The notes under the pieces were generated by a model. It saw nothing but the letters and a program-made list of their open reading frames with translations. It searched no databases and was not told where the DNA came from. Source: Anaerolineae bacterium (GTDB taxonomy: Bacteria; Chloroflexota; Anaerolineae; Aggregatilineales; Ch27). From it: a stretch of 64,000 nt of DNA. A program made the translations under genes and the position numbers. This document shows positions 8,087 to 51,095 of this stretch, piece by piece (position 1 is the stretch's first letter; every line of letters begins with the position of its first letter). The stretch is from contig DAOTXK010000268.1 of assembly GCA_034435395.1 (NCBI GenBank), forward strand, positions 2,200 through 66,199, read 5' to 3'.

Positions 8087-8929
8087 TCAACTCTCGTCTT
8101 CAGCGGTCGGCGACTCGGCGGCCGGATACGACCCCAGCATCTTAACAAATGAGGCGCGCCGCAGCAGGGCAATCAGCGCCGACTCACACACCTCGTCCTG
8201 CCAGTGCCCCTCAAAATCGAGGTAAAAAATGTACTCCCAGGGGCGGTTGCGGCGCGGGCGCGACTCGATCTTGGTCAGGTTGATGCCGCGCTCAGCAAAC
8301 TCCCCCAGGCATTCATAAAGCGCTGCCGGACGGTGACGGGTCGCGAAGACGAGCGATGTTTTGTTGTGCGCTGCCCGTGGCGGATCGTCAATCCCCAGGA
8401 TGAAAAAACGGGTGTAGTTGTAGGGCACATCCTCAATATTCGGCTCGATGACATCCAGCTTATACAGTTCCGCCGCCAGCGCGCTGGCAACCGCCCCGAC
8501 ACCGGGGACGGGTGCAGCGGCCAGATCACGGGCCGCGCCCGCTGTGTCGTACCAGGGCTCGGTTTCCAGGCCGTGCCGCCGCAGGAATTGCTCGCACTGG
8601 GCCAGCGCCTGGGGATGAGACCGGACACGCGCCAGGTCGGCCAGTTTCGTGCCCGGCGGAACCAGCAGCGCATGCCGCACGTGCAGAATGACTTCCGCCT
8701 GGACGCGAATATCGTGCTCCATCATCAACTCGTAAGACTGCGCGACAGTGCCCGCCAGCGCGTTCTCAACCGGCAAGATGGCATGCTCGGCCTGCTGTGA
8801 TTCGATAGCCTCGAACAGCTCGCCCAGCGTGCGGCATGGCAGGACTTCCACCGTATCACCATAATGCTGGCGAATGGCCTGTTCTGAATAGGCACCGTGA
8901 ATCCCCTGGAAAGCAACGCGCTCAGCCAC
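8087..8929 (-). CDS. pheA: prephenate dehydratase
   Basis: [15 protein letters not shown]-terminus, TRFFILG and ESRP motifs with a C-terminal ACT-like region. GTG start is preceded by AGGAGGGG. Confidence 0.9.
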
Positions 8930-9057
8930 CTGCCCCCTCCTGCCTGAGATGCCGCCATGCTAACATACTGAGCCGAGGCCCACCAAGTGCATTGAGCATC
9001 AGGCGATTTGTTCACTTTGACTAAGGAGATGAGTCAATTTGCCTGTCAAATTGTCCG

Positions 9058-9087
9058 TTGACAGGGCCCCCTGCCGTGGCGTATCAT
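9058..9087 (+). promoter_or_regulatory. sigma70-type promoter candidate for the arg leader/argGH
   Basis: TTGACA (9058-9063), 18 nt spacer, TATCAT (9082-9087). The -35 sits inside the inverted repeat CCTGTCAA-N8-TTGACAGG. Confidence 0.45.
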
Positions 9088-9093
9088 GCGGCC

Positions 9094-9180
9094 ATGATCG
9101 AGAAAGTCTCTTCCCTCCGTTTGCGCCGTCGCCACCGCCCGATCACGCGTTGGTCTGGCGGGAGCCTCAGCATTGCCTGA
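9094..9180 (+). CDS. putative arginine leader peptide (28 codons)
   Basis: MIEKVSSLRLRRRHRPITRWSGGSLSIA. Six Arg codons, five of them within codons 9-15. The ATG is 6 nt after the -10 box (leaderless candidate). Followed by terminator/antiterminator elements. Confidence 0.5.
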   Translation: MIEKVSSLRLRRRHRPITRWSGGSLSIA

Positions 9181-9214
9181 CGTTCCTGGCACAACCGGAG
9201 CCGAGAAGCGCATA

Positions 9215-9246
9215 CCCCAGACCAGCGCGGTCTGGGGTTTTTGTTT
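9215..9246 (+). terminator. intrinsic terminator (attenuator) upstream of argG
   Basis: CCCCAGACC-AGCGC-GGTCTGGGG followed by TTTTTGTTT. argG SD AAAGGAG and ATG 9274 lie immediately downstream. Confidence 0.7.
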
Positions 9247-9273
9247 GGAAAACAATAAAGGAGCGACTCCAGA

Positions 9274-10536
9274 ATGACCGATCAGAACATCCACAAAATC
9301 GTCCTGGCCTATAGCGGAGGGCTGGACACCTCCATCATCGTGCCCTGGCTGAAGGAAAACTACGGGAGCGAAGTGATCTGCTATACGGCTGATCTGGGCC
9401 AGGAAGAAGAGCTGGACGGCCTGGAAGAGAAGGCCCTCAAGACTGGTGCCAGCAAGCTGATCATCGAAGACCTGCGCGAGGAGTTCCTGACCGATTTTGT
9501 CTTCCCGACCATGCAGGCGGGGGCCGTCTACGAACGGGCGTACTTGCTGGGCACCTCCATGGCCCGTCCTCTGATCGCCAAGCAGCTGGTCAGGGTGGCC
9601 GAAGCGGAGGGCGCGGAGGCGATCGCGCATGGTTGTACTGGCAAGGGCAACGATCAGGTCCGGTTTGAGCTGACAGCCATGGCGCTCAACCCCAAACTAC
9701 GGGTGATCGCCCCGTGGCGAGAATGGGACATCCGCAGCCGGGAAGACGCCATCGCCTACGCCGAGGCGCATGATGTCCCGATTACACAAGCCCTTAAGAG
9801 TATCTACAGCCGTGACCGGAATCTTTTCCACCTCAGCCACGAAGGCGGCCCGCTGGAAGACCCCTGGAACGAGCCGGAAGAAGACATGTTCATCCTCACC
9901 AACAGCCCGATGGAAGCCCCCGACGAGCCTGAATACCTGGAAATCGGGTTTGAGAAGGGCACGCCAGTCAGCATCAACGGTCAGCCACTGCCCCCTGTCC
10001 AGTTGTTTGAGGCGCTAAACAGGATCGGCGGCAAACACGGCGTCGGGCGGGTGGATATGGTGGAGAACCGTCTGGTCGGTATGAAGAGCCGGGGTGTCTA
10101 TGAAACTCCCGGCGGCACGTTGCTGCTGGTGGCCCATCAAGCGCTGGAAAGCATTTGCCTGGATAAGTACACCATGCACTTCAAGGACTTCATCGCCGTT
10201 AAATATGCGGAGTTGGTGTATAACGGGCAGTGGTACACCCAGCTTCGGAAAGCTTTTGATGCTTTCGTGGCCGTCACCCAGCAGACGGTCACTGGCACGG
10301 TGCGCCTCAAGCTGTACAAGGGCAACGTCATCATCGCTGGTAGGAAAGGCCCGTATAGCCTATACCGGGAGGACTACGCGTCCTTCGGCCAGATGGATAT
10401 CTACGATCAGACGGATGCTGAGGGGTTTATCCAGTTGTTCGGATTGCCGCTTAAGGTCCAGGCGATGTTGCGGCTGGAGGGTGGCGGTGAGAGCGAGTAT
10501 GGTCAGCCGGATTATGCGCTGTTTAAGCGGGATTAG
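9274..10536 (+). CDS. argG: argininosuccinate synthase
   Basis: [14 protein letters not shown]-PPase motif; 420 aa, full-length ArgG-like. Confidence 0.97.
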
Positions 10537-10584: not shown

Positions 10585-11976
10585 ATGACCCTGTGGGGTG
10601 GCGTCTTCCAGCACCAAACGGACGAGGCAGTCCGGAAGCTGAACGACAGTCTGCCGTTTGATTGGCGTCTCTATGATGTGGATATCACGGGCAGCCAGGC
10701 CTGGGCCGGAGCACTCTTGACAGCCGGCGTGCTTAGCGAACAAGAACACGCCGCCATCATCGCCGGTTTGGACCAGGTGCGGGCCGAATTCAGCGCCGCG
10801 CTCGCCAGGGGGACATTCGAGCCTGCCCCTGGCGATGAGGATATTCACACGGCTGTCGAGCGCCGCCTCACCGCGATCATTGGTCCTGCGGCGGGCAAGC
10901 TCCACACCGGACGCAGCCGCAACGATCAGATCGCGACCGATCTGCGCCTGTGGATGCTCAAGGTTGTTCCCACTCTGGCCGATCAGGTCGCTGCATTGCA
11001 GCGGGCGCTGCTGTCCCAGGCTGTGGATCACGTCGAGAGTGTGATGCCTGGATTCACGCATTTACAACCGGCGCAGCCAATCACGGCGGCCCACTGGTTG
11101 CTGAGCTTCGCCCAGATGTTAGAGCGGGATCGTGGCCGCCTGGAGCAGGTCAAAGTGGCCGCCGGCATCTGCCCCCTCGGCTCAGGTGCGCTGGCCGGAA
11201 CCCCCTACCCCATCGATCGGGAAGCGCTGGCCGCGGCGCTGTCTTTCGCCCAGGCCAGCGCTAACAGCCTGGATGCCGTCTCCGATCGGGATTTCGTGTG
11301 TGGCTTTCTCTACGTGGGCGCGCTGTTGATGGTGCACCTGTCACGCCTGGCCGAAGACCTGATCCTCTACAGCACGCCCCAGTTTGGCTTTGTCACGCTG
11401 GACGAACGCTACAGCACCGGCAGCAGCCTGATGCCCCAGAAACGTAATCCCGACCCGTTAGAGCTCACACGCGGCAAAACGGGCCGCATCATCGGCCATC
11501 TGACCGGATTCCTGACCACCCTGAAAGGTCTGCCCAGCGGTTATAACAAAGACCTGCAAGAGGATAAAGAGCCGGTCTTTGACACGTATGACACCCTGTC
11601 GGCAGTGCTGCCCGTGCTGACCGGCCTGGTGCGGACGATGACCCTGCACCCGGCGAACATGCGCGCTGCCCTGGACGAAGCGATGCTGGCCACCGACCTG
11701 GCCGACTACCTGGTGCGCAAAGGCGTTCCTTTCCGGGAAGCGCACCACATCGCTGGGCAGGTCGTGCGGAAGGCGGTGGAGGCAGGCGTCCCGCTGTCCG
11801 CGCTGCCGCTGGCAGAATACCAGGGCATCTCCCCGCACTTCCAACAGGACGTATCCGAAGTTTTCGATTTTGCCGGGGCTGTCGCCCGCCGGGCTGCCCT
11901 CGGAGGCCCCGCGTCGGAGGCTGTCCGTGCGCAGATCGCCCAACTGGCGGAAAAACTGGGCACGTCCGGCACATAG
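10585..11976 (+). CDS. argH: argininosuccinate lyase
   Basis: MTLWGGVF.. N-terminus, fumarate-lyase signature GSSLMPQKRNPD. ATG 10585 is preceded by GGAGG. Confidence 0.95.
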   Translation: MTLWGGVFQHQTDEAVRKLNDSLPFDWRLYDVDITGSQAWAGALLTAGVLSEQEHAAIIAGLDQVRAEFSAALARGTFEPAPGDEDIHTAVERRLTAIIGPAAGKLHTGRSRNDQIATDLRLWMLKVVPTLADQVAALQRALLSQAVDHVESVMPGFTHLQPAQPITAAHWLLSFAQMLERDRGRLEQVKVAAGICPLGSGALAGTPYPIDREALAAALSFAQASANSLDAVSDRDFVCGFLYVGALLMVHLSRLAEDLILYSTPQFGFVTLDERYSTGSSLMPQKRNPDPLELTRGKTGRIIGHLTGFLTTLKGLPSGYNKDLQEDKEPVFDTYDTLSAVLPVLTGLVRTMTLHPANMRAALDEAMLATDLADYLVRKGVPFREAHHIAGQVVRKAVEAGVPLSALPLAEYQGISPHFQQDVSEVFDFAGAVARRAALGGPASEAVRAQIAQLAEKLGTSGT

Positions 11977-12134: not shown

Positions 12135-12254
12135 ATGCTGTCACCTGACCTCACCAAGCTGTTCATCCTTATTATCATCGTACTTCTCAGCCTCGTCATT
12201 ACCAACGAGGCTTTGGTGGTTGGGGTGAAGACGGCGCCCGCGCGAGTTAGTTAG
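12135..12254 (+). CDS. putative branched-chain amino acid leader peptide (39 codons)
   Basis: MLSPDLTKLFILIIIVLLSLVITNEALVVGVKTAPARVS. 19 of 39 codons are Leu/Ile/Val, including the block FILIIIVLLSLVI. A terminator lies 27 nt downstream. Confidence 0.6.
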   Translation: MLSPDLTKLFILIIIVLLSLVITNEALVVGVKTAPARVS

Positions 12255-12280
12255 CGGACAGCATACAGGAAGCCAGCGAG

Positions 12281-12308
12281 AAGCCCCCGACCACCGGGGG
12301 CTTTTTGG
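12281..12308 (+). terminator. intrinsic terminator (attenuator 1) upstream of ilvD
   Basis: AAGCCCCCG-ACCAC-CGGGGGCTT followed by TTTGG. An alternative 11-bp helix is possible between 12215-12225 and 12285-12295. Confidence 0.7.
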
Positions 12309-12342
12309 TTGAGTTTGCCACAACATGTCAGGAGAACCCACC

Positions 12343-12564
12343 ATGATCCCAGGACAGCCAGCCCCTTACGCCGCTGCCCTGCCACATGAGATGCCCTGTC
12401 AGGCGACACACACCAGTCCCTGGACAGAGCCATTCCGCACGACTTTCGGCCACCAGCCCCAGCGCCCCGCCACGGAGCCAGCCACGGCATCCTCACACGC
12501 CACTATGGTCCCGTGCGCCAGTGAGATGTCTGTCGACAGCTATGCGTACAGCCCCAACCGTTAG
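12343..12564 (+). CDS. small ORF (73 codons) between the two ilv leader hairpins; coding status uncertain
   Basis: AGGAGA sits 7 nt upstream of ATG 12343. Pro/Ala/Thr-rich product with no recognisable domain. Its stop TAG lies in the loop of the next hairpin. The composition also fits non-coding GC-rich sequence. Confidence 0.25.
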
Positions 12565-12582
12565 GTATGGGGCTGCTTTTTT
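12549..12582 (+). terminator. second terminator-like hairpin abutting the ilvD RBS
   Basis: CAGCCCCA-11 nt loop-TGGGGCTG followed by CTTTTTT. GAGG and the ilvD ATG 12596 follow directly. Confidence 0.5.
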
Positions 12583-12595
12583 GAGGCGAATTATC

Positions 12596-14260
12596 ATGCG
12601 ATCAGATCGGATCAAGAAGGGCTTTGAACGCGCGCCCCATCGGGCCTTGCTCAAGGCCACCGGCATCACCGACGACGATATGGACAAGCCCTTCGTCGCC
12701 ATCTGCAACAGCTACATCGACATCATTCCTGGTCACGTCCACCTGCAAAAATTCGGCGCGGCAGTGAAACAGGCGGTCCGTGAAGCCGGCGGCGCCCCCT
12801 TCGAATTTAACACCATCGGCGTTGACGATGGCATCGCCATGGGCCACCTGGGCATGAACTACTCCCTGCCCAGCCGGGAGCTGATCGCCGACTCCGTCGA
12901 AACCGTCGTCGCTGCCCATGCCTTCGATGGCATGATCTGCATCCCCAACTGTGACAAGATCGTCCCCGGCATGTTGATGGCCGCCGTCCGGCTGGACATC
13001 CCCACCATCTTCGTCAGCGGGGGGCCGATGGCCGCCGGGAGGACTCCTGATGGCCGCACCGTTGACCTGATCACGGTCTTTGAAGGTGTCGGTGCATACC
13101 AGGCAGGGACGATCGACACCGCCGAGCTTAAGATGCTGGAGGATTACGGATGCCCGTCCTGCGGGTCCTGCGCGGGCATGTTCACCGCCAACAGCATGAA
13201 CTGCCTGATGGAAGCGCTGGGCCTGGCCCTGCCCTACAATGGCAGCGCCCTGGCCGAGACTGACGAGCGTTACGCCCTGGCCCGCCAGGCTGCCCGCCAG
13301 ATCATGACCCTGATCGACCAAAATTTGACCCCGCGCCAGATCGTCACCGCCGAGGCCATCGACGACGCGTTTGCCCTCGACATGGCCATGGGCGGCAGCA
13401 CCAACACCGTCCTCCACACCCTGGCCATCGCCTATGAGGCCGGGATCAGCTACGATCTGGAACGCATCAACGCCGTGGCCGCGCGTGTCCCGCACATCTG
13501 CAAGGTCAGCCCGGCCAGCCCCTGGCATATGGAAGACGTGCACCGCGCCGGCGGCGTCCCCGCCATCCTCAAGGAGATCAGCGCGGACGGCAATACGCTG
13601 CATCTGGACCGCCTCACCGTCACCGGCAAGACCCTGGGCGAAAACATCGCCGATGCCAGGATCACGGACGATGAGGTCATCCGCCGCCGGGAGAACGCTC
13701 ACTCCCCTACCGGCGGCCTGACCATCCTGTTCGGCAATCTGGCTCCAGATGGCGCAGTGATCAAAACGGGCGGCGTTGGCGGCAGACGCCAGCATTGCGG
13801 CCCGGCCCGTGTCTACCAGTCCGAAGAAGAAGCCTCACGCGGCATCCTGAACGGCGAGGTGCAGCCGGGCGAGGTCGTCGTCATCCGCTACGAGGGCCCG
13901 CGTGGCGGCCCTGGCATGCAGGAGATGCTCGGCCCGACGGCGCAGATTCAGGGCATGGGGCTGGGCGACAGCGTGGCCCTGATCACCGACGGACGGTTCT
14001 CTGGCGGCAGCCGGGGCATGTCCATCGGCCATGTCAGCCCGGAAGCCGCCGCCCGCGGCCCCATCGCCATCGTGCAGGACGGCGATACCATCGCCATCGA
14101 TCTCGATGCCCGCACGCTGGAACTCCAATTACCGGCTGAGGAAATCCAGGCCCGCCTGGACGCGCTGCCGCCTTTCGTCCCCCACATCGAAAGCCGCTGG
14201 CTGCGCCGTTATGCCAGGCTGGTCAGCAGCGCCAGCACCGGTGCCGTTTTGCTGGATTAA
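12596..14260 (+). CDS. ilvD: dihydroxy-acid dehydratase
   Basis: [24 protein letters not shown]-terminus and CDKIVPGM Fe-S cluster region. The upstream part of the 624-aa track ORF is leader sequence. Confidence 0.95.
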
Positions 14261-27059: not shown

Positions 27060-27308
27060 AGTTTCATCAACTATGACGGAGAGGAGTAGGCGGCCAGCGC
27101 CCTCTCAGAGAGGTGGGTCACCGGCTGAAAGCCCACCAGGGTAGCCCCGCTGAAGGTCGCTCCTGAGTTGAGACGTTGAACATACCAGTAGGCGTCTCCG
27201 GTTTGGCCCGTTATCGCGTCAGAGTGCCTGCGTCTTGAGAAGGCGCGGGAACCAAGGTGGTACCACGGAAGTTGCGACCTTTCGCCCTTGACGGCGGAAG
27301 GTTTTTTG
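27060..27308 (+). promoter_or_regulatory. T-box leader (tRNA-Val responsive) with terminator
   Basis: Stem I elements (AGAGA at CTCAGAGAGG). Specifier-loop GAAG-GUC-G with Val codon GTC at 27156-27158. Conserved T-box AACCAAGGTGGTACCACGG at 27250-27268. Terminator ACCTTTCGCC-CTTGAC-GGCGGAAGGT plus T6 at 27277-27308. Confidence 0.88.
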
Positions 27309-27464: not shown

Positions 27465-30107
27465 GTGAACAACGACATGACCAAAGAAATGCCCCGCATC
27501 TTCGACTTCAGAGAGGCCGAAGCACGCCTCTATCAGTGGTGGCAGGAAAACGGCTGGTTCAAGCCCGAAACGGCTGGCTCCGACGCCGAACCGTTCGTGA
27601 TCAGCATTCCGCCGCCTAATGTGACTGGCGAACTGCATCAGGGCCATGCGATGTTCGTCAGCCTGGAAGACCTGATGATCCGCTATGAGCGGATGCGTGG
27701 TAAGGCGGCCCTGTGGGTGCCTGGCACCGACCATGCCAGCATCGCCACCGAACTTCAGGTGGAAAAAATGTTGCAGGCGGAAGGCTCCAGCCGTCGCCAG
27801 ATCGGGCGGGAGGAATTCCTGCGCCGGGCCTGGGCGTGGCGAGAGAAGTATGGCGGGCGCATCAATGAACAGCTCCGACGCCTGGGAGCGAGCTGTGACT
27901 GGGATCGCGAGCGTTTCACGCTCGACGACGGGCTTTCCAGAGCCGTGCGCGAAGCATTCGTCACGCTGTGGGAACAGGGTTTGATCTACCGGGGCCCACG
28001 TCTGGTGAACTGGAGTCCCGGCTTGCAGACCGCTGTCAGCGATCTTGAAGTGGAATATGAGGAAATAGACGCCACGTTGTATTACTTCAAGTATTGTCTG
28101 CATGACGATCCGGATACCTACATCCCGGTGGCGACCACCCGCCCTGAAACCATCCTGGGCGATACAGCCGTAGCCGTGCACCCGGAAGATGACCGCTATC
28201 GGCGCTTGATCGGTCAACGCGTGATCGTGCCTATGATGAACCGCGCCATACCGGTGATCGGCGACGCCTACGTGAACCGGGAGTTCGGCACCGGGGCGTT
28301 GAAGGTCACGCCCGGCCATGATCCCAACGACTACGAGATCGCGGGACGTCATGGGCTGGAAATCATCAACATCATGAACAAAGACGCAACGCTCAACGAA
28401 AATGCCGGTGCCTATGCCGGGTTGGATCGTTTTGAGGCCCGCCAGAAGCTCTGGGCGGACATGAAAGCCGCCGGCCTGGTCATCAAGGAAGAGCCGTACC
28501 ATCACAGCGTGCCCGTCAGCCAGCGCGGCGGCGAAATGGTCGAACCGCTCATCAGCGAGCAGTGGTTCGTTAAGATCAAACCGCTGGCCGAAAAAGCGAT
28601 TGAAGCCGTGCGCGATGGGCGCATTCAGATCGTGCCGGAACGCTTTACGAAAGTTTACTTCCACTGGATGGAAAATATCCGCGACTGGTGCATCAGCCGC
28701 CAGTTATGGTGGGGCCATCGCATCCCGGCCTGGTACGGCCCCGGTGGCGAGATCGTGGTGAGTCGGGATGGCCCGCCCGACGACGGTCGCCCCTGGCGGC
28801 AGGACGAAGATGTGCTGGACACCTGGTTCAGCAGCGGCTTGTGGCCGTTCAGCACGTTGGGCTGGCCGGAGCAAACGGCAGACCTGCAACGATATTACCC
28901 GACCAGCATCATGGAAACGGGCTACGATATCCTGTTCTTTTGGGTGGCCCGCATGATCATGATGGGGCTGTGGTTCACCGGCAAGGTCCCATTCCGGACG
29001 GTCTACTTGCACGGCCTTGTCAGAGATGAGCATGGTCGCAAGATGAGCAAGACCACCGGCAACGTGATCGATCCCATCCAGAACATCGAGGAGTATGGGG
29101 CCGACGCGCTCCGTTTCACCCTGCTGACGGGCAGCACGCCGGGCAATGACATGAACCTGTCGGAGGACCGCATCCGTTCCAACCGCAACTTCGGCAACAA
29201 AATCTGGCAGATGGCGCGTTTCGTGACCGGCAATCTCGGCGGGGAAGCGCCCATCGGCCCGCCGGCGCGTGACGGCCTGAGCCTGCCCGACCGCTGGATT
29301 CTGAGCCGGCTGCACGGGCTGATCGCCAATGTGCAGCGGCTGTTCGACTCCTACCAGTATGGCGAAGCCGGGCGGCAGATCTATGACTTCATGTGGGGCG
29401 AATATGCCGACTGGTACATCGAGATCAGCAAGGAAACGCTGTTCGGCGAGGACGAGAAGGCCAAATCCCGCACCCGACACACCCTGGTCTACGTGCTGGA
29501 GACCTGCCTGCGACTGCTGCACCCGTACATGCCGTTCGTCACAGAGGAAGTCTGGCAGTACCTCCCCCACCACGGCCCTGCGCTGATCATCGCCAGATGG
29601 CCCGAAGCCGACCCCGCATTTTATGATGAGGAGGCCGAGGTCAGCATGAAGGCCCTCATCGAGCTGATTCGGGGCATACGGAATGTGCGGGCCGAGTATG
29701 AGGTGGACCCCGGACGCCGGATCAAAGCGCTGATCCACGGCGGCAGCTACCGCTCCCTGATCGCCGCGTATGAAAGTCTGTTTGACCGACTGGCGCGCGT
29801 TGAGACGATCACCTACCTGACCAGCCACGATGGCGCGCCGGAGAAGGCTGCGTCGGTCGTTGTCGGTGATGCGACGATCTACCTTCCGCTGGCCGGCCTG
29901 ATTGATCTGAAAGCTGAACAGGCCCGGTTGAGTCAGGAGATGGAAAACCTGGACGGCCTGCTGACGCGGTCCAGAAACCTGCTGGAGAATCCCAACTTTG
30001 TGAATAAGGCCAACCCGGAAGTCGTGGAACGGGAGCGCGCCAAACTGGCCGATCTGGAGGCCAGGAAAGAAACCATCCAGAAACGTCTGGCTATCCTGAG
30101 CGATTAA
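27465..30107 (+). CDS. valS: valyl-tRNA synthetase
   Basis: Class I motifs PPPNVTGELHQGHA (HIGH) and KMSKT, C-terminal coiled coil. Start is GTG 27465 or ATG 27477. Confidence 0.95.
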   Translation: MNNDMTKEMPRIFDFREAEARLYQWWQENGWFKPETAGSDAEPFVISIPPPNVTGELHQGHAMFVSLEDLMIRYERMRGKAALWVPGTDHASIATELQVEKMLQAEGSSRRQIGREEFLRRAWAWREKYGGRINEQLRRLGASCDWDRERFTLDDGLSRAVREAFVTLWEQGLIYRGPRLVNWSPGLQTAVSDLEVEYEEIDATLYYFKYCLHDDPDTYIPVATTRPETILGDTAVAVHPEDDRYRRLIGQRVIVPMMNRAIPVIGDAYVNREFGTGALKVTPGHDPNDYEIAGRHGLEIINIMNKDATLNENAGAYAGLDRFEARQKLWADMKAAGLVIKEEPYHHSVPVSQRGGEMVEPLISEQWFVKIKPLAEKAIEAVRDGRIQIVPERFTKVYFHWMENIRDWCISRQLWWGHRIPAWYGPGGEIVVSRDGPPDDGRPWRQDEDVLDTWFSSGLWPFSTLGWPEQTADLQRYYPTSIMETGYDILFFWVARMIMMGLWFTGKVPFRTVYLHGLVRDEHGRKMSKTTGNVIDPIQNIEEYGADALRFTLLTGSTPGNDMNLSEDRIRSNRNFGNKIWQMARFVTGNLGGEAPIGPPARDGLSLPDRWILSRLHGLIANVQRLFDSYQYGEAGRQIYDFMWGEYADWYIEISKETLFGEDEKAKSRTRHTLVYVLETCLRLLHPYMPFVTEEVWQYLPHHGPALIIARWPEADPAFYDEEAEVSMKALIELIRGIRNVRAEYEVDPGRRIKALIHGGSYRSLIAAYESLFDRLARVETITYLTSHDGAPEKAASVVVGDATIYLPLAGLIDLKAEQARLSQEMENLDGLLTRSRNLLENPNFVNKANPEVVERERAKLADLEARKETIQKRLAILSD

Positions 30108-49604: not shown

Positions 49605-49792
49605 CACTCTTATCCAGAGCGGCGGAGGGACCGGCCCTGCGAAGCCGCGGCAACCCTCATTGAGACGGCTGTCATCCAGCCCGATCTCAGAGAAGGTGCC
49701 AATTCCTGCAGACTGAAATGTCTGGAAGATGAGAGCGCGTCTGTGACCCTGATTACAGCAACTCCCTCTCATCACGAGAGGGAGTTTTTGTT
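49605..49792 (+). promoter_or_regulatory. SAM-I (S-box) riboswitch with terminator
   Basis: CTCTTATCCAGAGCGGCGGAGGGACCGGCCCTGCGAAGCCGCGGCAACC ... GGTGCCAATTCCTGCAG ... GAAGATGAGAG matches the S-box core. Terminator ACTCCCTCTC-ATCAC-GAGAGGGAGT plus TTTTTG at 49761-49792, whose 5' arm can alternatively pair with the P1 3' strand. Confidence 0.92.
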
Positions 49793-49856: not shown

Positions 49857-51095
49857 ATGTTAACCCAGCCCGACCTGATTGAGGACACCCGACCCGCGAC
49901 TATTGTGGCGGCACCTGCCGCCCCTCGTGCATCCACCCGCGCTGTGCATGGCGGCACCATCCGCCGCAAAGACCAGCACAGCCTCACCACACCCATCTTT
50001 CAGACCGCCACCTTCACCTTCGCCAATACCGCTGAGTTGCTGGAATTCGTCACCGGTCAGGATACCAACCGCGAAGAATACGGGCGCTATGGAAACCCCA
50101 CCATCAATGCGGTGGAACGCAAGCTGGCGGTGCTCGATGGCGGAGAAGATGCGGTCCTGTTCGCTTCTGGCATGACGGCGGTGACATCGGTGTTGCTGGC
50201 GAGCCTGCCCACCGGGGCGCACATCATCATGACCCATGACTGCTACCGACGGACGCGCCAGTTCTGCCAGGAGTATCTCCCCCGCCTGGGAATCGAGACC
50301 ACCATCGTGGCGATGGGCAACTATGACGCCCTGGAAGCGGCCATCCGGCCCGGCCAGACCCGATTTATCCTCTCCGAAAGCCCCACCAACCCCTATCTGC
50401 GGGTCGCTGACCTGGAACGGATCGCGGCCCTTGGTCGGCAGTACCACGTGCGCACGCTGATCGATAGCACCTTCGCCACCCCCATCAACCAGCGCGCCCT
50501 GGAATGGGGAATTGACGTGGTGATCCACAGCGCCACCAAGTATCTCTCCGGCCACAATGACCTGCTGGCTGGCGTCGTGGTCGGCAAAGGCCCCTTTATC
50601 CAGGCGATCCGCGAGGCGCGGGGCGTGCTGGGCAACCTGGTTGACCCGCAGAACGCCTTCCTGCTGGAGCGTGGCTTGAAGACCCTGGCGCTGCGGGTCC
50701 GGCAGCAAAACGCGACCGCTCAGGCGGTGGCCGAGTATCTGGAGAATCATCCCAAGATCGAGCGCGTATGGTATCCTGGCCTGGCCAGCCACCCCGATCA
50801 CGCCGTGGCCGCTGCCCAGATGAGCGGCTTTGGTGGCGTGGTGAGCTTTGAGACCAGGGCCACCCTGGCGGAGACCAGCCGCTTTGTCGACGCCATGCGG
50901 ATTCCGTACATTGCGCCCAGCTTCGGCGGCGTTGAAAGTCTGATCGAGCAGCCGGCGATCATCTCCTATCACGATGTGCCGCCGGAGGAGCGCGCCGCCA
51001 TCGGCATCAAAGACAACCTGGTCCGCTTCGCCGTCGGCATCGAAGACACCGAAGACATCCTGGACGATCTGGAACAGGCGCTACGCGTGCTCTAG
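49857..51095 (+). CDS. Cys/Met-metabolism PLP enzyme (cystathionine gamma-synthase / O-acylhomoserine thiolyase family)
   Basis: PLP-lysine motif HSATKYLSGHNDLLAG. 412 aa, under SAM riboswitch control. Confidence 0.85.
   Translation: MLTQPDLIEDTRPATIVAAPAAPRASTRAVHGGTIRRKDQHSLTTPIFQTATFTFANTAELLEFVTGQDTNREEYGRYGNPTINAVERKLAVLDGGEDAVLFASGMTAVTSVLLASLPTGAHIIMTHDCYRRTRQFCQEYLPRLGIETTIVAMGNYDALEAAIRPGQTRFILSESPTNPYLRVADLERIAALGRQYHVRTLIDSTFATPINQRALEWGIDVVIHSATKYLSGHNDLLAGVVVGKGPFIQAIREARGVLGNLVDPQNAFLLERGLKTLALRVRQQNATAQAVAEYLENHPKIERVWYPGLASHPDHAVAAAQMSGFGGVVSFETRATLAETSRFVDAMRIPYIAPSFGGVESLIEQPAIISYHDVPPEERAAIGIKDNLVRFAVGIEDTEDILDDLEQALRVL

Follow-up and report, generated by a model that had tools for sequence, protein, structure and literature searches.

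Leader-peptide transcription attenuation is the textbook mode of control for the biosynthesis of tryptophan, histidine, phenylalanine, leucine, threonine and isoleucine/valine, with arginine standing as the repressor-controlled exception, in which the DNA-binding repressor ArgR (ArgR/AhrC) exerts end-product control over the arg genes. Here we analyse a 64,000-nucleotide (nt) stretch of DNA from an Anaerolineae bacterium of the phylum Chloroflexota (contig DAOTXK010000268.1, positions 2,200 to 66,199; hereafter the window), in which the region preceding the argG-argH operon very probably encodes, to judge from its sequence and from folding models, a ribosome-mediated leader-peptide transcription attenuator specific for arginine, which would likewise provide end-product control. 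The proposal is built on the sequence elements of this leader, on their conservation, on covariation in two mutually exclusive helices and on the geometry of a run of arginine (Arg) codons relative to the strand that forms the antiterminator. A full-text literature search found no arginine leader-peptide attenuator of arginine biosynthesis, and an earlier description is possible. On balance, we lean towards the argGH leader being the first such attenuator described, an Anaerolineae-wide family in front of argG-argH that is leaderless, reads the charging of the tRNA-Arg that decodes CGY codons (Y, T or C), and takes the usual place of ArgR-type repression, its attenuators perhaps interconverting with those for other amino acids by frame shift.

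The closest described systems are the enterobacterial attenuators (trpL, hisL, leuL, thrL, ilvL and pheL; Rfam families Trp_leader and His_leader), which share with the argGH leader overlapping helices between four leader regions (2:3, 3:4 and, as a putative helix in the argGH leader, 1:2), an intrinsic terminator just 5′ of the first biosynthetic gene and regulatory codons within region 1. Despite the similarity, the argGH leader would sense arginine, is predicted to be leaderless without a Shine-Dalgarno sequence, belongs to a different phylum and shows no sequence similarity to any of the Rfam leaders. In addition, its region 2 lies inside the leader open reading frame (ORF), with the stop codon 7–18 codons past the Arg run, so that region 2 is left unmasked by a ribosome that has reached the stop codon. 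Feature by feature, the mechanism proposed for the argGH leader matches that of the enterobacterial attenuators, with three exceptions: the amino acid sensed, the predicted leaderless start and a region 2 that falls within the ORF.

Other systems share single parts of this design. The fungal arginine attenuator peptide, encoded by the upstream ORF of arg-2/CPA1, also serves end-product control, stalling ribosomes at high arginine through its nascent chain; unlike the argGH leader, it lacks an Arg run, follows the opposite logic and acts on translation in a eukaryote. Arginine T-boxes of Firmicutes respond to the same signal, tRNA-Arg charging, with the same output, terminator versus antiterminator, but bind uncharged tRNA directly and need no translation, and the argGH leader gives no T-box match. 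Mycobacterial leaderless polycysteine short ORFs are reported to act on translation by sequestering a downstream Shine-Dalgarno sequence, without an intrinsic terminator (bioRxiv 10.1101/834739). They resemble the argGH leader in its predicted leaderless start, in the consecutive codons for the amino acid of the pathway, in lying upstream of biosynthetic genes and in the proposed sensing of charged tRNA through ribosome speed, whereas the argGH leader has a conserved canonical terminator/antiterminator and leaves the Shine-Dalgarno sequence of argG free. Ribosome pausing at Arg codons reports arginine in Salmonella orf34, upstream of speF (PMC6386406), and in Staphylococcus aureus rbfL (PMC13009471). 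Unlike the argGH leader, both contain two Arg codons only and target polyamine synthesis and a biofilm regulator, with Rho termination, RNase G sensitivity or occlusion of a ribosome-binding site as output instead of an intrinsic terminator switch, and rbfL uses the rare codons AGA/AGG rather than CGY. For some genomes of Chloroflexi, a prediction of leaderless genes has been published (PMC3160421).

The leader and its operon comprise the following elements in the window.

9058–9063, + strand: −35 hexamer TTGACA (promoter scan; together with the −10 hexamer scored 11/12)
9082–9087, + strand: −10 hexamer TATCAT (promoter scan), ending 6 nt 5′ of the ATG
9094–9180, + strand: leader ORF of 28 codons plus TGA, MIEKVSSLRLRRRHRPITRWSGGSLSIA (read from the sequence)
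9118–9138, + strand: Arg-codon run CGT TTG CGC CGT CGC CAC CGC (R L R R R H R)
9135–9145, + strand: region 1, 5′ strand of the 1:2 hairpin in the minimum-free-energy structure, overlapping the last Arg codons
9146–9161, + strand: region 2, putative antiterminator 5′ strand inside the ORF (codons T18–G22, including the conserved SGG)
9214–9228, + strand: region 3, terminator 5′ arm (9214–9223) and loop (9224–9228), common to antiterminator and terminator
9229–9246, + strand: region 4, terminator 3′ arm (9229–9238) and U-tract TTTTGTTT (9239–9246), from the terminator scan
9260–9263, + strand: Shine-Dalgarno sequence GGAG of argG, 3′ of the terminator (read from the sequence)
9274–10536, + strand: argG, argininosuccinate synthase (Pfam PF00764 and PF20979, E = 1e-66 and 3e-86)
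10585–11976, + strand: argH, argininosuccinate lyase (Pfam Lyase_1 and ASL_C2)

Most of these elements had been described in an earlier note on this DNA, made from the sequence without database searches, and they stand. The promoter, with its spacer of 18 nt and its end at 9087, was recovered by the promoter scan; the ATG at 9094, 6 nt past the −10 hexamer, opens a 28-codon ORF with six Arg codons (positions 9, 11, 12, 13, 15 and 19), five of them within codons 9–15; and the Shine-Dalgarno sequence and ATG (9274) that the note assigned to argG do lie behind the hairpin, with Pfam identifying both ArgG and ArgH. The argH frame is open from GTG 10555, its likely start being ATG 10585 (MTLWGG...). 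Since its Shine-Dalgarno sequence is downstream of the terminator, argG has its own ribosome-binding site. The GC-rich hairpin that the note placed at 9215–9237, with arms CCCCAGACC/GGTCTGGGG followed by TTTTTGTTT, turned out one pair longer, reaching 10 base pairs (bp) and −19.5 kcal/mol by the addition of A9214-U9238. The 13-bp helix it drew between 9146–9158 and 9217–9229 is likewise real, and RNAduplex extends it to 14 bp with a bulged C (9147–9161/9215–9228) at −27.0 kcal/mol, with z = −5.6 relative to shuffles of the upstream strand.

We determined the conservation of the leader in 80 related loci from species-representative genomes, retrieved with the ArgG protein at 70–88% identity, nearly all of them metagenome-assembled genomes of Anaerolineae-class Chloroflexota. 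The argG start was re-derived for each locus, and the 350 nt upstream were scanned for small ORFs with at least four Arg codons in seven; an Arg-rich ORF scored in 40 of 81 upstream regions. Thirty-two clean leaders, each taken from its −35 element through its terminator, were aligned with MAFFT without fitting to any structure (alignment A1). An nhmmer profile of this alignment recovered all 32 at E ≤ 1e-6, with E-values down to 1e-28, and additionally found the leaders of L051, L032, L018 and L047, giving a total of 35 of the 80 related Anaerolineae loci in which the module of promoter, Arg-run ORF and terminator precedes argG. The profile also matched one metagenome contig, L110, where the leader again stands before argG-argH. 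In 33 of the 35 leader-positive loci, argG is followed by argH.

The spacing of the elements is constrained throughout the 32 aligned leaders. The −35 hexamer is almost invariant and starts, in 29 of them, 34–38 nt 5′ of the ATG (mode 36), and the −10 element of the relatives (TATNNT) ends 6–8 nt 5′ of the ATG, a fixed short distance that leaves no room for a Shine-Dalgarno sequence. Transcription is thus predicted to start at or within 1 nt of A9094, giving a leaderless transcript; two leaders, in L021 and L053 (labelled Deltaproteobacteria), have a 5′ untranslated region instead. The Arg frame stays open for 21–32 codons in all 32 leaders, while the two other frames scatter between 0 and 105 codons; the Arg run begins at codon 6–12, the stop codon lies 7–18 codons past the last Arg codon of the run, and the terminator begins 19–45 nt after the stop.

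The composition of the run is equally distinctive. Relatives carry RR[I/E]RRRR, typical leader peptides being MITPASLLHSRLRRRSRSIEYRSGGNFGIG, MFAQIFSLRLRRRRLTTPRSGGNCGLH, MSARCDFLTRRIRRRRTCSESGGLGVPGQR and MIAKWFTFTRRERRRRTCITDSVV, and arginine accounts for 23.6% of leader codons compared with 5.6% in ArgG. Within the run, the aligned Arg codons invariably begin with CG and differ only at position 3, which is T or C. Among the 209 Arg codons of the leaders, 90% are CGT or CGC, compared with a CGY share of 68% in argG, and CGG, at 25% in the argG genes of these genomes, accounts for 3%. In ~560 kb of related loci there are 13 exact matches to CGYCGYNNNCGYCGYCGYCGY, none of them outside the leader.

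These constraints bear on the alternative that the ORF is incidental and that the conserved CGY stretch and the helices are bound by a small ligand, as a riboswitch would be, by a tRNA, as in a T-box-like element, or by an RNA-binding protein of the TRAP/PyrR type. Repeated CGY triplets could serve as a protein-binding repeat, the window itself holds a T-box and an S-adenosylmethionine (SAM) riboswitch, and RNA-level T-box regulation of arginine genes is known in Firmicutes (PMC1262725). Against this, an ATG at a fixed distance from the promoter, one open frame and a conserved stop position point to translation, and there is little conservation of sequence or structure between the ATG and the Arg run or between region 2 and the terminator. 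Rfam searches of the site, at gathering thresholds and at E ≤ 10, returned no family match beyond chance level, and the T-box model (RF00230) gave no match in 8900–9350 even at E = 10, although the same model detects the valS T-box elsewhere in the window. We regard such a binding site as quite improbable.

Compensatory changes support both of the mutually exclusive helices across the 32 leaders. The terminator helix (3:4) is paired in 93.8% of cells, with seven of its ten pairs changed on both sides; pairing falls to at most 59% when the register is slid, and none of 500 shuffles was as good. Similarly, the antiterminator core (2:3) is paired in 88.2% of cells, with five of nine pairs changed on both sides, at most 57% pairing when slid, and none of 500 shuffles as good for the covariation score. 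Alignment columns 223 and 224, within the terminator 5′ arm, covary with both partners, and the helix variants found among the loci include GGTCTGG:CCAGACC, GAGTCCGG:CCGGACT, GGGTTCGG:CCGAACCC and GAGGTTC:GAACCTC. In nearly every locus the best partner strand of the terminator 5′ arm starts 6–14 nt beyond the final Arg codon of the run (median z = −2.8). RNAalifold, run on the alignment, returned only the terminator and a 3-bp stem.

The peptide motif SGG, though conserved, is no more than the coding face of region 2. This coincidence matters for a further alternative, in which the ORF encodes a functional Arg-rich micropeptide, the hairpin is merely its terminator, and argG is expressed by read-through or from another promoter. 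Conservation of ORF length, of the R-run and of SGG would be expected of such a peptide, but the leader peptide is poorly conserved beyond the Arg run, and SGG coincides and covaries with the strand that pairs with the terminator arm, which places the constraint on the RNA. Moreover, neither a promoter scan nor reading of the window sequence found a promoter-like site in the 27 nt between terminator and argG. We therefore consider a micropeptide very unlikely.

We also modelled the nascent leader with a masked ribosome footprint that begins 15 nt 5′ of the first A-site nucleotide and reaches 12 nt past it. In these models, which use transcripts ending before region 4, P(2:3) measures how probably the terminator 5′ arm folds back onto the ORF. 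Its modelled median over the 32 loci was 0.79 for a ribosome with an Arg codon of the run in the A site and 0.11 for one with the A site 3–8 codons beyond the run, and every locus gave the higher value on the run (32 of 32; Wilcoxon p = 5e-10). For the window leader, the 14-bp 2:3 helix is predicted at full length with the A site on R9 through R13; it retains 12 bp at R15, shrinks at P16 and is lost at T18. By these models, the placement of the Arg run relative to region 2 is that of a stalled-ribosome switch.

The earlier note had read the leader as a candidate arginine-sensing attenuator and had proposed three computational checks, the outcomes of which all agree with that reading. The small ORF and its Arg run recur as a homologous module 5′ of argG in the 35 loci, compensatory changes appear in terminator and antiterminator alike, and, for the two competing conformers, the antiterminator of the nascent transcript forms in the model with the ribosome on any Arg codon from R9 to R15 and disappears two to three codons further on. 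The note's suggestion of a leaderless transcript finds strong though indirect support in the nearly constant distance from the −35 hexamer to the ATG. Comparative and structural evidence together thus favour its interpretation of the locus as an arginine-sensing attenuator.

A number of results nevertheless weigh against this interpretation. Fewer than half of the related argG loci have the module. Taken by itself, an Arg-rich ORF is within chance, as 13 of 680 ATG-initiated ORFs of 12–45 codons in the window have at least five Arg codons in seven, the remaining 12 all lying within the spans of long window ORFs, and the overall fold of 9088–9250 is only mildly unusual (z = −1.8). A ribosome on the stop codon gave a modelled median P(2:3) of 0.64, and a ribosome-free leader one of 0.47, such that the thermodynamic model leaves the "off" state unexplained. 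At equilibrium, the full window leader folds into the terminator conformer at −62.4 kcal/mol and reaches −51.9 kcal/mol when the antiterminator is enforced, a difference of 10.5 kcal/mol in favour of the terminator; a masked ribosome leaves that preference intact for the window leader and for ~20 of the 32 loci, and the expected dip at the Arg run appears in only ~12. Masking of the full-length leader at equilibrium was replaced as a model by the nascent transcript truncated before region 4. A terminator favoured at equilibrium implies that the switch must be kinetic, as in trp.

The 1:2 helix, which would enforce termination, presents a related difficulty. The minimum-free-energy structure of the window leader contains a 10-bp 1:2 hairpin (9135–9145/9151–9161), and in the family the last Arg codons (UCGCCG) can pair with CGGYGG of region 2, the 6-bp core being paired in 82.8% of cells compared with 31–54% when slid. 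This pairing is not better than in shuffles, and the 32 leaders show no covariation of the 1:2 helix beyond shuffles, a result to be expected where each strand is already held in place by another role. The 1:2 helix is thus a putative one.

Two alternatives draw on these difficulties. By the first, the leader is a product of chance, an accidental Arg-rich ORF and terminator in a GC-rich intergenic region, which the frequency of Arg-rich short ORFs in the window and the modest fold score would allow. Conservation in relatives decides the question that a single Arg-rich ORF leaves open: the whole module is kept over 35 loci, with compensatory changes in two helices and with fixed spacings, and the combination of features together with this conservation is far above chance. 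The comparative sequences have already refuted an origin by chance, to which we assign a negligible probability.

By the second, a translation-driven switch is real but reports something other than arginine supply, either general translation capacity or an intrinsic slowing of the ribosome by the polybasic nascent chain (RRIRRRR) in the exit tunnel, in which case read-through would stay at a fixed level. Elongation can be slowed by basic residues in succession, the switch geometry needs only a ribosome pause on the run, and the "off" state is the part that the folding model does not account for. Yet the run precedes the last two genes of arginine synthesis in 33 of 35 loci, and its residues are nearly all arginine, without lysine and from the single codon class CGY, which is unexpected if charge alone mattered; in addition, a parallel leader rich in isoleucine, valine and leucine in front of the ilv-leu genes, described below, obeys the rule that a leader carries codons for its cognate amino acids. 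We consider a switch blind to arginine unlikely, though the least unlikely of the alternatives, and arginine-independent polybasic stalling is possible as a contributing factor.

Taking these observations together, we infer the following course of transcription, translation and termination for an arginine-responsive attenuator. Transcription would begin with the A of the leader AUG (9094) or a neighbouring nucleotide, and a 70S ribosome would load on the leaderless 5′ end and translate the CGY run, the codons of which are themselves region 1. When charged tRNA-Arg is scarce, the ribosome would stall on the run and cover region 1, leaving region 2 free to pair with region 3 as soon as that is transcribed and before region 4 exists; formation of the 2:3 helix would block the terminator hairpin (9214–9238), and RNA polymerase would continue into argG-argH. 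By contrast, when arginine is plentiful, the ribosome would move across region 2 towards the stop codon (9178), so that region 2 is first covered and later captured by region 1. Released together behind the ribosome before region 3 emerges, regions 1 and 2 should pair first, and region 3 would then pair with region 4, stopping transcription at ~9243–9246.

A conserved arginine attenuator, if true, would add arginine to the range of the mechanism, and with it a phylum that is little studied and for the most part uncultured. It would also join a leaderless start to a canonical intrinsic-terminator switch, two features seldom combined, and the pairing would offer a clean system for studying the coupling of a ribosome loaded at the 5′ end to RNA polymerase. 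Because gene callers miss leader ORFs, the alignment gives an annotation seed for hundreds of metagenome-assembled genomes, and the leader, being compact and protein-free, could serve elsewhere as an arginine-sensing genetic part.

Control at the level of DNA may act on top of attenuation in the window. A perfect 8-nt inverted repeat, CCTGTCAA-N8-TTGACAGG, occupies 9042–9065 with the −35 hexamer as one arm, and the form GTCAA-N9-TTGAC is kept in most of the five closest relatives, clearly in L001, L003 and L005 and degenerately in L002 and L004; it is confined to these five and absent from the wider family. The repeat may be the operator of a DNA-binding regulator, and it seems unlike an ARG box, the AT-rich palindromic operator of ArgR/AhrC. 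A divergent pheA promoter was considered as its cause and rejected, there being no convincing −10 element on the minus strand. Neither ArgR nor further arg genes were found among the 46 ORFs of the window scanned against Pfam.

Among the relatives, a few leaders depart from the common form. The leader of L032 (2852–3003) is a variant or decaying one in which no stop codon closes the Arg-run ORF (…TRRSRRI…) ahead of the terminator and the frame continues towards argG, and that of L047 (2856–2958) keeps promoter, region 2 and terminator but has a short ORF (MFIWPTLIRQFIHRFR) from which the Arg run is gone. In L044 (2668–2956) the terminator is duplicated. Six Aggregatilineales loci (L068, L070, L071, L074, L075 and L078) have a promoter TTGACG-17-TATYCT 50–100 nt 5′ of argG, with a terminator-like hairpin and T-run ~25 nt past the promoter and no leader ORF in between.

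An apparent second leader type, MTIRTRTRRRN, seen ~270 nt 5′ of argG in the Thermoflexus-like loci L006–L009, L013 and L065, was rejected as an artefact, being the reverse complement of a leader ORF rich in isoleucine, leucine and valine (ILV; MFRRLVLVLIVIVLVILGG...) whose terminator is on the opposite strand. What precedes argG in these Thermoflexus-like loci is a conserved AT-rich motif, GTTTAGTGATTATGTACAAAAG, and then a hairpin and T-run. Metagenomes were also scanned for the leader in front of other genes with the pattern TCCGYCGYCGYCGYAC-N7-14-GTYCGG, which gave at least 120 matches; nearly all of those listed were chance occurrences inside GC-rich coding DNA, and among them only L110 was a true leader.

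The argG-argH operon lies within an amino-acid biosynthesis supercluster (window 1–24526), with hisZ, hisG, hisD, asd and pheA on one side and, after argG-argH, ilvD, ilvB, ilvN, ilvC, leuA, leuC, leuD, a second leuA/cimA-like gene and leuB; valS, preceded by a T-box, comes after the leuB end of the cluster. The arrangement asd-pheA / argG-argH is kept in L001–L005. Directly after argH stands a second leader ORF (12135–12254, MLSPDLTKLFILIIIVLLSLVITNEALVVGVKTAPARVS), rich in isoleucine, leucine and valine, with a 13-bp terminator at 12277–12307 in front of ilvD-ilvBNC-leuA-leuCD-leuB, and we regard 12135–12307 as a candidate second leader-peptide attenuator. ILV-rich leaders with terminators also follow argH in relatives, including L004, L038, L051, L055 and L061, one example reading MKQFATSINLIVVVLVLVLIIGGL, then a terminator, then ilvB. 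Their presence in the window and in relatives suggests that leader-peptide attenuation is more widely used in this lineage. The ilvD frame is open from 12386, and the conserved protein seems to start at ATG 12596, which leaves ~290 nt unexplained after the ILV terminator (window 12308–12596).

The two leader types resemble each other at the nucleotide level. A comparison of window 9113–9140 with L061 5848–5880 and similar sites revealed near-identical CGT-repeat nucleotides read in different frames, ATC CGT CGT CGC CGT AC in the Arg leader and ATC GTC GTC ATC GTA CTC GTC in the ILV leader, as a result of which the Arg-leader profile cross-matches ILV leaders. The likeness may be a coincidence, or one attenuator may derive from the other.

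Two further RNA-level elements were assigned by Rfam in the window.

27064–27292: T-box leader (118 bits), before 27465–30107, a class-I tRNA synthetase with a Val-tRNA-synthetase C-terminal arm (valS)
49607–49735: SAM riboswitch (95 bits), before 49857–51095, a pyridoxal-phosphate-dependent enzyme of cysteine/methionine metabolism

With the Arg leader and the ILV leader, the window thus appears to hold four different RNA-level amino-acid sensors.

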